A stretch of 64,000 nt of DNA from the sequence record NC_028448.1, one strand, 5' to 3'. Source of the stretch: Escherichia phage slur14. A program made the position numbers and the translations under genes. Below, one piece after another: positions 21,392-22,731 of the stretch. The stretch's first letter is position 1, and each line of letters opens with the position of its first letter. The notes beneath the pieces were generated by a model, which searched no databases, was not told where the DNA came from, and worked only from the letters and a program-made list of their open reading frames with translations.

Positions 21392-22171
21392 TTAATTAAA
21401 AATATATACTTCATCAGTTCCATTCTTTTCTTTGGAATGATATATGTTAAAGACGTATTTTTTATTAAGATGCTTAACATTATATTTTTTAGACCATTCT
21501 TTAAGAAGAGTGTTTTCCTTTCCGTGATGCTCTAAAACATTCGACAGCCCAAATTTTATTCCTCTGTCATTTAAAGAATCTAAAAGATTTAAAAGGTCTT
21601 TTTCTTCTTCTTCTGACCAAAATTTATTATAATCAGCAACTGTTATGAGATACGGAGGATCTACATATACAAAATCGCCGTCTAGAATTTTGACATCTTT
21701 AAAATGCAATGAACTAAAGATTATTTTATCACAATTTTGCTTAAAGTGATTAAAGCGTTTTTCACTATTTTTGTTTATAGTTCTTTTTCCAAACGGAGTA
21801 GTAAAATTTCCTTTATCGTTTATACGAATCATATTACTAAATCCATGAAAATGAAGAACATAAAGTAAAAGAGGATCTCTAGTTTTATTATAATCTTCAC
21901 GTAATTTCAAAAACTCTTCTTTTGATGTTTTTGATAGTTTGTATTGCTTTATTACTTTTAAAACGTCATCCCATGATACATTAATAAGACGCTTATACAT
22001 TTCAATAATTGGTTCTTGAATATCATTGGCCAATACAGGACCATTGACGTTCAAAGACACTGATAAACCTCCACAAAATAAATCCACGAATCTGTCATAT
22101 TTTGGAAAATGAGGCTTAAGTTCAGGTAATAATGATTGTTTATTACCTGTATACGCGATAGCTCCTAGCAT
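21392..22171 (-). CDS. dam: Dam DNA adenine (GATC) methyltransferase
   Basis: 259 aa; DPPY catalytic motif; FCGG SAM-binding motif. Confidence 0.9.
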
Positions 22172-22731
22172 TATATTCTCTCATTTATTGCAGCAAAAAA
22201 CGAATTATATAATTCTTCATCATATGTATTTGATAGTAATACTAACACGTTTTGTGATTTAGCATATTCATTAAACCTTGCTTGGATAGTTGGATTATCA
22301 GTAAATGATTCTCTTTTTGTCCATTTATTACGTGGATAATATCCGCATGGCAAAAAATCTAATATCATCAATGACACGGGGTTTTCAGTTTTTGTGTATT
22401 CTTTTAATTTCTCTTTATCTTCTAAATATATTCCAACCGAATCAATAGCTGTACCTCCACCAACTTGATGTTTAATTTCAATTATATGCTTTTTACCGTT
22501 GCGAGAAATAACAATATCAAATCTTCTAGTACGCTTCTTAGTTATAAAATTAGAGCAAAACAAATTATTTGATTTTTCAGTATCATCGGTTAAAACCATT
22601 TTTTCTTGATAACTAACTGAACAATCAGTGAAATATTCTTTTACTTTATTAAGTATGAAATTTTCAACTACGGCAGATATTTTATATGAATCTCCGTTTA
22701 AAGCCATTTCATGCACAATTTTATTAATCAT
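22171..22731 (-). CDS. hypothetical protein (186 aa) with candidate PD-(D/E)xK nuclease motif
   Basis: [19 protein letters not shown] (D...E-x-K); stop/start overlap with dam; GAGGA SD. Confidence 0.55.

Follow-up and report, generated by a model that had tools for sequence, protein, structure and literature searches.

The Dam methylases of phages T2 and T4 are classic model enzymes that methylate GATC, and they are treated as orphans of unclear benefit to the phage. Among described restriction-modification (R-M) systems, the DpnII/MboI endonucleases (Pfam PF04556) are GATC-specific, are blocked by Dam-type methylation and are partnered by a Dam homologue, DpnM, while chlorovirus R.CviAI/M.CviAI and other virus-encoded pairs combine an early nuclease with an adenine methylase that acts on GATC and shields the genome of the virus. 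Here we describe an open reading frame (ORF) of 186 codons, ORF186, which directly precedes dam in a stretch of 64,000 nucleotides from Escherichia phage slur14 (NC_028448.1; this whole stretch is hereafter the window). We propose that ORF186 and the phage Dam are the endonuclease and methyltransferase halves, respectively, of a two-gene Type II-like R-M cassette, a reading to which we give about an even chance of being correct.

The partner of ORF186 is, like DpnM, a Dam-family enzyme, and the gene organisation of the pair resembles that of the CviAI-type virus-borne systems. The two cases also differ: CviAI-type systems target the host DNA of chloroviruses, which is unmethylated, whereas the hosts of phages carrying ORF186 are Dam-positive and the phage DNA additionally carries glucosylated hydroxymethylcytosine (glucosyl-hmC). 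We found no description of ORF186, or of a nuclease partner for T-even Dam, in the searchable literature, and a 2025 review of restriction-modification says only that many phages encode Dam (PMC12707154).

Obligatory linkage of ORF186 to dam

Window positions 22100-23100 have 100% identity with phages slur03 and Lutter, and ~500 T-even records match this part of what is a Tequatrovirus (T4/T2-like) genome. The unit under study comprises the following elements.

21352..22819: whole ORF186-dam cassette, 1468 bp, between gene 61 with a 66-aa ORF on one side and gene 56 on the other (delimited by alignment to RB32)
22757..22786, minus strand: predicted T4-type early promoter of the ORF186-dam unit, with GTTTAC as -35 at 22786..22781, 18 nt, and an extended -10, TGgTATTAT, ending at 22757
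22171..22731, minus strand: ORF186, predicted PD-(D/E)xK restriction-endonuclease-like protein, 186 aa
21392..22171, minus strand: dam, Dam-family N6-adenine DNA methyltransferase, 259 aa (Pfam PF02086, E 6.5e-51; annotated as Dam in matching phage records)

The dam product belongs to the D12 class of N6-adenine methyltransferases, and we take it to be near-identical to T4 Dam. A first-pass annotation of this DNA had described a 186-aa ORF at 22171..22731 whose stop overlaps the dam start, and this is borne out: the ORF186 TAA (22173..22171) and the dam ATG (22171..22169) have base 22171 in common, the junction reading ...ATATAATGCTAGGA. ORF186 ends in ...ATA TAA and the dam ATG lies inside TAATG, an overlap of 1 nt. 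The same annotation had given ORF186 an early promoter of its own, which is real as sequence: the hexamer TATTAT of TG-n-TATTAT occupies 22762..22757, and a GAGGA Shine-Dalgarno lies further downstream. A generic sigma-70 scan found 11 promoters against 13.2 expected, which is not above chance in the AT-rich DNA of the window. Despite this, we accept the element as a T4-type early promoter, predicted to drive ORF186 and dam jointly, because, of eight diverged lineages with upstream DNA read, six (Dhakavirus MX01, Klebsiella phage KPV15, T2 and the metagenomic loci L007, L003/L005 and L009) have the same GTTTAC...TGnTAnnnT arrangement 5' of the homologous ORF. It was absent upstream of the homologue in locus L010 and from the upstream stub of only 68 nt in locus L008.

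Every ORF186 homologue with readable context, down to 30% identity, directly abuts or overlaps a D12-class Dam gene. The junctions in MX01, KPV15 (a Jiaodavirus) and the eight metagenomic loci (L003-L010) are as follows.

L003-L006: 0-nt spacing
L007: 1-nt overlap
L008: 35-nt overlap
L009: 20-nt overlap, with a rIIA-like-looking protein next
L010: 4-nt overlap
Dhakavirus MX01: 1-nt overlap
Klebsiella phage KPV15: 7-nt overlap

The KPV15 pair sits between an rIIB/endonuclease region and a topoisomerase gene rather than between genes 61 and 56, so that the constant neighbour is dam and not the insertion site; the neighbourhood in L009 also differs from the 61-56 interval. Homologues without an adjacent dam, which the first-pass annotation had named as a reason to abandon its idea, were absent from the 147 Tequatrovirus records carrying both genes, from MX01 and KPV15, and from L003-L010. 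The two proteins also diverge in parallel, with identities of 64/63/57/41/32/30% for the ORF against 76/71/72/62/55/52% for Dam. The ORF falls faster, a pattern usual for endonuclease/methylase pairs. An endonuclease gene that lies beside a methyltransferase gene and is co-inherited with it is typical of Type II R-M systems, and this is what is seen here in all lineages, at two loci and with parallel divergence. Linkage of ORF186 to dam is thus obligatory across genera and loci.

The family itself is small and confined to T4-like phages. Among 1.8 billion representative proteins, a full HMMER profile search returned 11 matches, of which nine were real and formed one small family and two were spurious repeats. 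No homologue was found in a search of plasmids, nor in a pattern-limited scan of one genome per species from 185,579 bacterial and archaeal species; a similarly pattern-limited scan of IMG/VR recovered a single, identical locus.

A survey of Tequatrovirus records with dam plus ORF186 as the query revealed three states, the counts referring to matches over both genes and not to the integrity of the dam reading frame in each record. Both genes are present in 147 records, T2 among them. Another ~35, including T4, T4T, F1, ELT1, Manna and ECML-123-2, match only query positions 1-867, that is, dam with the last 87 nt of ORF186, and the remaining ~300 are without both genes. Direct inspection of RB32 confirmed the last state, its annotation reading 61 - ORF030w - 56 with ~40 unrelated bp in place of window positions 21352..22819; the matches of T6 and RB51 are partial in the same way as those of RB32. 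Conversely, ORF186 without dam was not found among the 153 phage records with at least 80% coverage of the ORF (147 Tequatrovirus records and six others, two of which, MX01 and KPV15, bore this out on inspection). In these records, then, the endonuclease gene does not persist without the methyltransferase gene while the reverse does occur, as is characteristic of Type II R-M systems.

The state found in T4 can be traced to a single missing segment, identified by pairwise alignment to T4 NC_000866.

22259..22806: 548 bp missing from T4 and ~35 relatives, flanked by direct repeats ATCACAAA (minus strand, 22806..22799 and 22258..22251)

This segment holds the promoter, ORF186 codons 1-157 and the first base of codon 158, so T4 retains the last ~29 codons of ORF186 in front of a dam that, at 97% DNA identity to that of the window, is the same gene. 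Near the 3' end of ORF186, a 1-nt deletion at window position 22201 (22200..22201 with the substitution beside it) is common to T2 and T4, indicating that the T4 remnant derives from a T2-like allele. In T2 the resulting frameshift replaces the last 8 residues, yielding a 181-aa product that ends in FLLQ and whose stop is no longer coupled to dam, from which it is 13 nt away. ORF186 was already present, without annotation, in the GenBank entry M22342 of 1988 for T2 dam, with one extra single-base gap there that would break the frame.

Decay of ORF186 with dam still annotated has occurred independently in several cases, namely a frameshift in G4500, alleles of 183, 142 and 61 aa, the 181-aa allele of T2 and the T4 deletion. 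Loss of the nuclease with retention of dam, and never the reverse, is the pattern predicted for a toxin-like endonuclease protected by its methylase. The first-pass annotation had followed the usual description of T4 Dam as an orphan, which holds for T4 as it stands, where the partner is reduced to ~29 codons; the Dam of the window and of T2 has its upstream partner. The orphan state is therefore secondary, and T4 Dam is the survivor of a cassette whose nuclease gene was deleted.

Predicted fold and affinities of the ORF186 protein

An AlphaFold2 model of ORF186 built from seven sequences (mean predicted local distance difference test score 79, predicted template modelling score 0.79) is a single nuclease domain whose elements run helix, helix, strand, strand, strand, helix, helix, strand, helix, strand, helix. 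It contains the alpha-beta core with a central mixed sheet (helix, three strands, helix, strand) that defines the PD-(D/E)xK superfamily. The positions of the putative active site in the DNA are given below.

22465..22521, minus strand: motif region, codons 71-89, with putative catalytic D72 (22518..22516), E85 (22479..22477) and K87 (22473..22471)
22665..22663, minus strand: invariant E23 of ORF186

In the model D72 falls on strand 2 (residues 67-77) and E85 and K87 on strand 3 (80-88), the canonical PD-(D/E)xK arrangement, while E23 belongs to the first long helix. When eight family members with identities as low as 32% are aligned, the invariant residues are E23, R69, D72, K81, H82, E85, K87, H88, Q89, G93-T-A-I-D-S98 and D125; across members only 30% identical, ~20 further positions are invariant beyond the acidic and lysine catalytic set. 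A D...ExK string alone is trivial, but here it is more than chance because its residues are invariant across the family and, in the predicted restriction endonuclease fold, fall on strands 2 and 3. The D...E-x-K arrangement that the first-pass annotation read from the letters, in a peptide that corresponds to residues 71-89, is thereby substantiated, and the fold prediction it proposed as a check shows a restriction-endonuclease-like core. These results support a predicted PD-(D/E)xK restriction endonuclease fold with conserved catalytic residues. ORF186 is also under purifying selection: the ratio of nonsynonymous to synonymous substitution rates (dN/dS) is 0.10-0.19 for the closest pairs, beyond which synonymous sites are near saturation, and the intact 186-aa form is identical in >100 records.

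Existing annotation says little about the protein. PHROGs places it in phrog_8706, of unknown function, an NCBIfam search returned nothing relevant and no curated family claims it. Nearly every record labels it 'hypothetical'; one GenBank record, that of phage Shinka, has 'putative restriction endonuclease'.

By predicted fold, ORF186 resembles a small Type IIP enzyme of the EcoRI/MunI class, PD-(D/E)xK proteins that act as small homodimers and to which the model is a good structural match. MunI chains in the PDB have 197-200 residues, about the size of ORF186, and other complete Type IIP enzymes are similarly small. MunI and EcoRI, however, recognise sites with an AATT core, have other methyltransferase partners and show no detectable sequence similarity to ORF186. 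Searches of PDB sequences with ORF186 or the family profile gave no match at E<=10, and alignment of the profile by hhalign to an EcoRI sequence also gave nothing, so we rejected kinship with EcoRI. The EcoRI motifs E-A-K-H-Q and G-N-A-I-E-R resemble E-I-K-H-Q and G-T-A-I-D-S of ORF186 and offer a lead at the level of motifs only.

The only sequence family to score repeatedly with ORF186, besides the PADLOC Type II restriction endonuclease model, is DpnII. The Pfam profile matches the window protein at E 0.0045 (16.8 bits, below the gathering threshold of 23), aligning ORF186 residues 28-113 with profile positions 152-235 of 278; it matches four of the eight family members, the best at 8.3e-5, and none of the most distant ones. 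The hhalign comparison of the family profile with DpnII gave P 3.8e-4 and a probability of 36% over 34 columns. The PADLOC REase_II model aligns the same core at 9e-5 in the window protein and matches three of eight members, the best at 5.3e-6. D72 of ORF186 aligns with D201 and E85 with E214 of the DpnII relatives, and the C-terminal domain of a DpnII model has the same order of secondary structure as ORF186. Against this, the DpnII model begins with a ~145-residue N-terminal domain (helices 7-133) that ORF186 lacks, the lysine of E-x-K in ORF186 is replaced by E-x-N in the DpnII relatives, and the R-M gene order of the cassette is unlike that of the DpnII system, which is M-M-R.

Structural similarity to MutH, of the MutH/Sau3AI family of GATC nickases and restriction endonucleases, was not found, and a Pfam scan detected no GIY-YIG or HNH domain in ORF186, unlike the T-even seg/mob homing endonucleases. 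Membership of the DpnII, EcoRI/MunI, MutH or homing-endonuclease families is accordingly not demonstrable for ORF186, which we describe as a new, very small, phage-restricted endonuclease-like family within a known kind of system.

Possible roles of the cassette

We infer nuclease activity, dimerisation, GATC specificity, a block by methylation and a biological target for ORF186 along the following lines. ORF186 and dam would be transcribed early from one T4-type promoter and be translationally coupled. The nuclease, presumably a homodimer cutting via E23/D72/E85/K87, would cleave DNA without Dam methylation, most simply at or around GATC, and Dam would keep the phage's own DNA immune. GATC would be the simplest specificity because T2/T4 Dam methylates that sequence and because only the DpnII and PADLOC Type II restriction endonuclease models score. 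The likely targets would be DNAs that lack Dam methylation on entry or during replication, chiefly those of co-infecting phages, including T-even relatives without dam. The cassette might also be a selfish unit, in that dam could not be lost while the nuclease is intact.

The first-pass annotation had suggested either an R-M-like pair or a nuclease aimed at unmodified host DNA. Fold and linkage favour the former; the host is a weak candidate, as enterobacterial hosts are Dam-positive and their bulk DNA should therefore be immune. The DNA of other phages is the likelier target because the DNAs without Dam methylation in an infected cell would be mainly theirs, including those of the dam-less majority of T-even phages.

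Several points weigh against an R-M cassette. Glucosyl-hmC blocks most Type II enzymes, and given that host DNA is Dam-methylated and phage DNA carries this modification, the phage may not need Dam for self-protection. Most commercial Type II enzymes cannot cut sites with glucosyl-hmC, and one study reports that T4 DNA resists 94% of the Type II enzymes tested (PMC7653180). The nuclease gene comes first, ahead of the methylase gene, and the two are expressed together with no obvious device to delay the nuclease. Laboratory T2 has ORF186 frameshifted over the last 8 residues, and the cassette is dispensable, since many phages are without it. Our searches found no bacterial relatives of ORF186, leaving an origin from a cellular R-M system undocumented.

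If T2-type phages do carry an endonuclease that matches their Dam, the presence of Dam would be explained as self-protection and the orphan status of the T4 enzyme would become a datable deletion event, while the presence or absence of the cassette in hundreds of therapeutic and laboratory T-even phages would offer a testable case of phage-against-phage restriction. ORF186 would also represent a new, very small family of restriction enzymes that may tolerate hypermodified cytosine, with a possible use as reagents. For T4 specialists the point of note is that T2 has a candidate cognate nuclease for its Dam and that the orphan Dam of T4 is a deletion derivative.

A stronger version of the R-M proposal, which we consider unlikely, is that the cassette serves as a weapon among T-even phages. 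The nuclease would then cut unmethylated GATC even in hmC- or glucosyl-hmC-containing DNA, T2-type phages would destroy dam-less phages such as T6 and RB32, and T4, with the antidote only, would be 'immune but disarmed'. Were this so, phage Dam would gain a function after decades as a puzzling orphan, and the nuclease would contribute to the threefold depletion of GATC in T-even genomes. GATC is the most depleted of the 16 four-base palindromes in the window, with 74 occurrences against 213.5 expected (observed/expected ratio, O/E, 0.35); it is also the lowest in positions 1-50000 of the cassette-free RB32, at 51 against 166.5 (O/E 0.31), with TCGA next at O/E 0.62 in the window and 0.56 in RB32. 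We rejected this depletion as a signature of the cassette, since it is as strong in RB32 without it. It would fit selection exerted over a long time by some nuclease directed at GATC but is not cassette-specific.

Of the explanations that set R-M aside, the one that survives best, though we find it rather improbable, is a nuclease that discriminates by cytosine modification, cutting the ordinary cytosine DNA of the host or of competing phages and sparing hmC and glucosyl-hmC DNA in the manner of T4 endonucleases II and IV, with the proximity of dam a matter of history only. This corresponds to the second suggestion of the first-pass annotation. T-even phages degrade host DNA early while their own is protected by hmC, and both the early-type promoter and the PD-(D/E)xK fold would suit such an enzyme. 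What it leaves unexplained is the junction with dam in every lineage, even at another locus, the co-divergence of ORF186 with Dam, and the absence of ORF186 without dam in at least 153 records.

We think it less probable again that ORF186 is a homing-type endonuclease that mobilises the cassette by cutting the empty 61-56 site, or a nearby gene, in co-infecting phages, with repair then copying the cassette, as for the T4 seg and mob genes. The clean presence or absence between conserved genes (1468 bp in the window against ~40 bp in RB32) is typical of the free-standing homing endonucleases of T-even phages, and segF lies beside gene 56 in T4. The predicted fold, however, is of the Type II restriction endonuclease class rather than GIY-YIG or HNH; the different locus in KPV15 and different neighbourhood in L009 make dam, and not a site, the constant partner; and a methylase of 780 bp is unnecessary for homing.

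Very unlikely, in our view, is a nuclease with the methylation-directed logic of DpnI, which would cut Dam-methylated GATC in cytosine DNA, that is, the host chromosome, while phage sites are shielded by glucosyl-hmC and phage Dam completes host methylation. Host DNA is Dam-methylated and is the only abundant GATC substrate in the cell, and early expression is linked to that of Dam, both of which fit. ORF186, a single nuclease domain in the model, nevertheless lacks a winged-helix domain that would read the methyl group. With the host already methylated, moreover, strict linkage to the phage dam would not be required and no penalty for dam loss is predicted, and the asymmetry of nuclease lost with dam kept is predicted by a methylation-blocked and not a methylation-dependent enzyme. 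Least likely of all is that ORF186 is a relic, catalytically inactive or in decay, or that it has kept the nuclease fold as a DNA-binding protein regulating dam: the recurrent truncations and the T4 deletion do show ORF186 to be dispensable, but the catalytic set and ~20 further positions are invariant at 30% identity, dN/dS is well below 1 and more than 100 records share the identical intact form.

Neighbouring genes and upstream elements

Several further features flank the cassette or surround its promoter.

23028..24056, minus strand: gene 61 primase
22831..23031, plus strand: hydrophobic 66-aa ORF
22739..22779, minus strand: inverted repeat enclosing the -10, with arms 22779..22772 and 22746..22739, the 3' arm holding the Shine-Dalgarno GAGGA of ORF186
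20813..21346, minus strand: gene 56 dCTPase

The inverted repeat has a predicted RNA folding energy of -12.1 kcal/mol (z -2.7). We considered a gene-specific regulatory hairpin that hides the ORF186 Shine-Dalgarno and rejected it, because about one in two T4-type early promoters in the window has a similar stem. Such promoters (GTTTAC ... TGnTATAAT) with inverted repeats are found on the minus strand at 12817, 61891, 26061, 11743, 20110, 22786 and other positions. In these repeats the spacer pairs with sequence just 3' of the -10, giving stems of up to 13-17 bp and -11 to -24 kcal/mol; the stems would be possible only in transcripts reading through from upstream, and several extend to the Shine-Dalgarno. 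Stems enclosing the -10 also occur 5' of the ORF186 homologues in MX01, L007 and L009, in unrelated sequences, while in KPV15 and L003 the stem covers the Shine-Dalgarno and not the -10. A separate terminator-like hairpin, ATGGCATTAACAAGTGCCAT followed by a T-rich tail (22846..22865, minus strand), lies downstream of gene 61, in the antisense of the 66-aa ORF and just ahead of the ORF186 promoter.

The 66-aa ORF belongs to phrog_2024 and corresponds to RB32ORF030w and RB69ORF029w; it converges on gene 61 with a 4-nt overlap and has a late-promoter-like box, GATAAATA, and a strong Shine-Dalgarno. T4 keeps it at ~97% DNA identity, yet NC_000866 carries no annotation for it. In L009, a distant metagenomic T4-like contig, the homologue/dam pair is followed by a protein of 726-756 aa (1574..3844) that is rIIA-like by eye only. 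On the far side of gene 56, the interval separating it from soc contains small soc.1- and soc.2-like ORFs (20413..20816, minus strand), an arrangement also seen in T2; in T4 that place is taken by the homing endonuclease gene segF.
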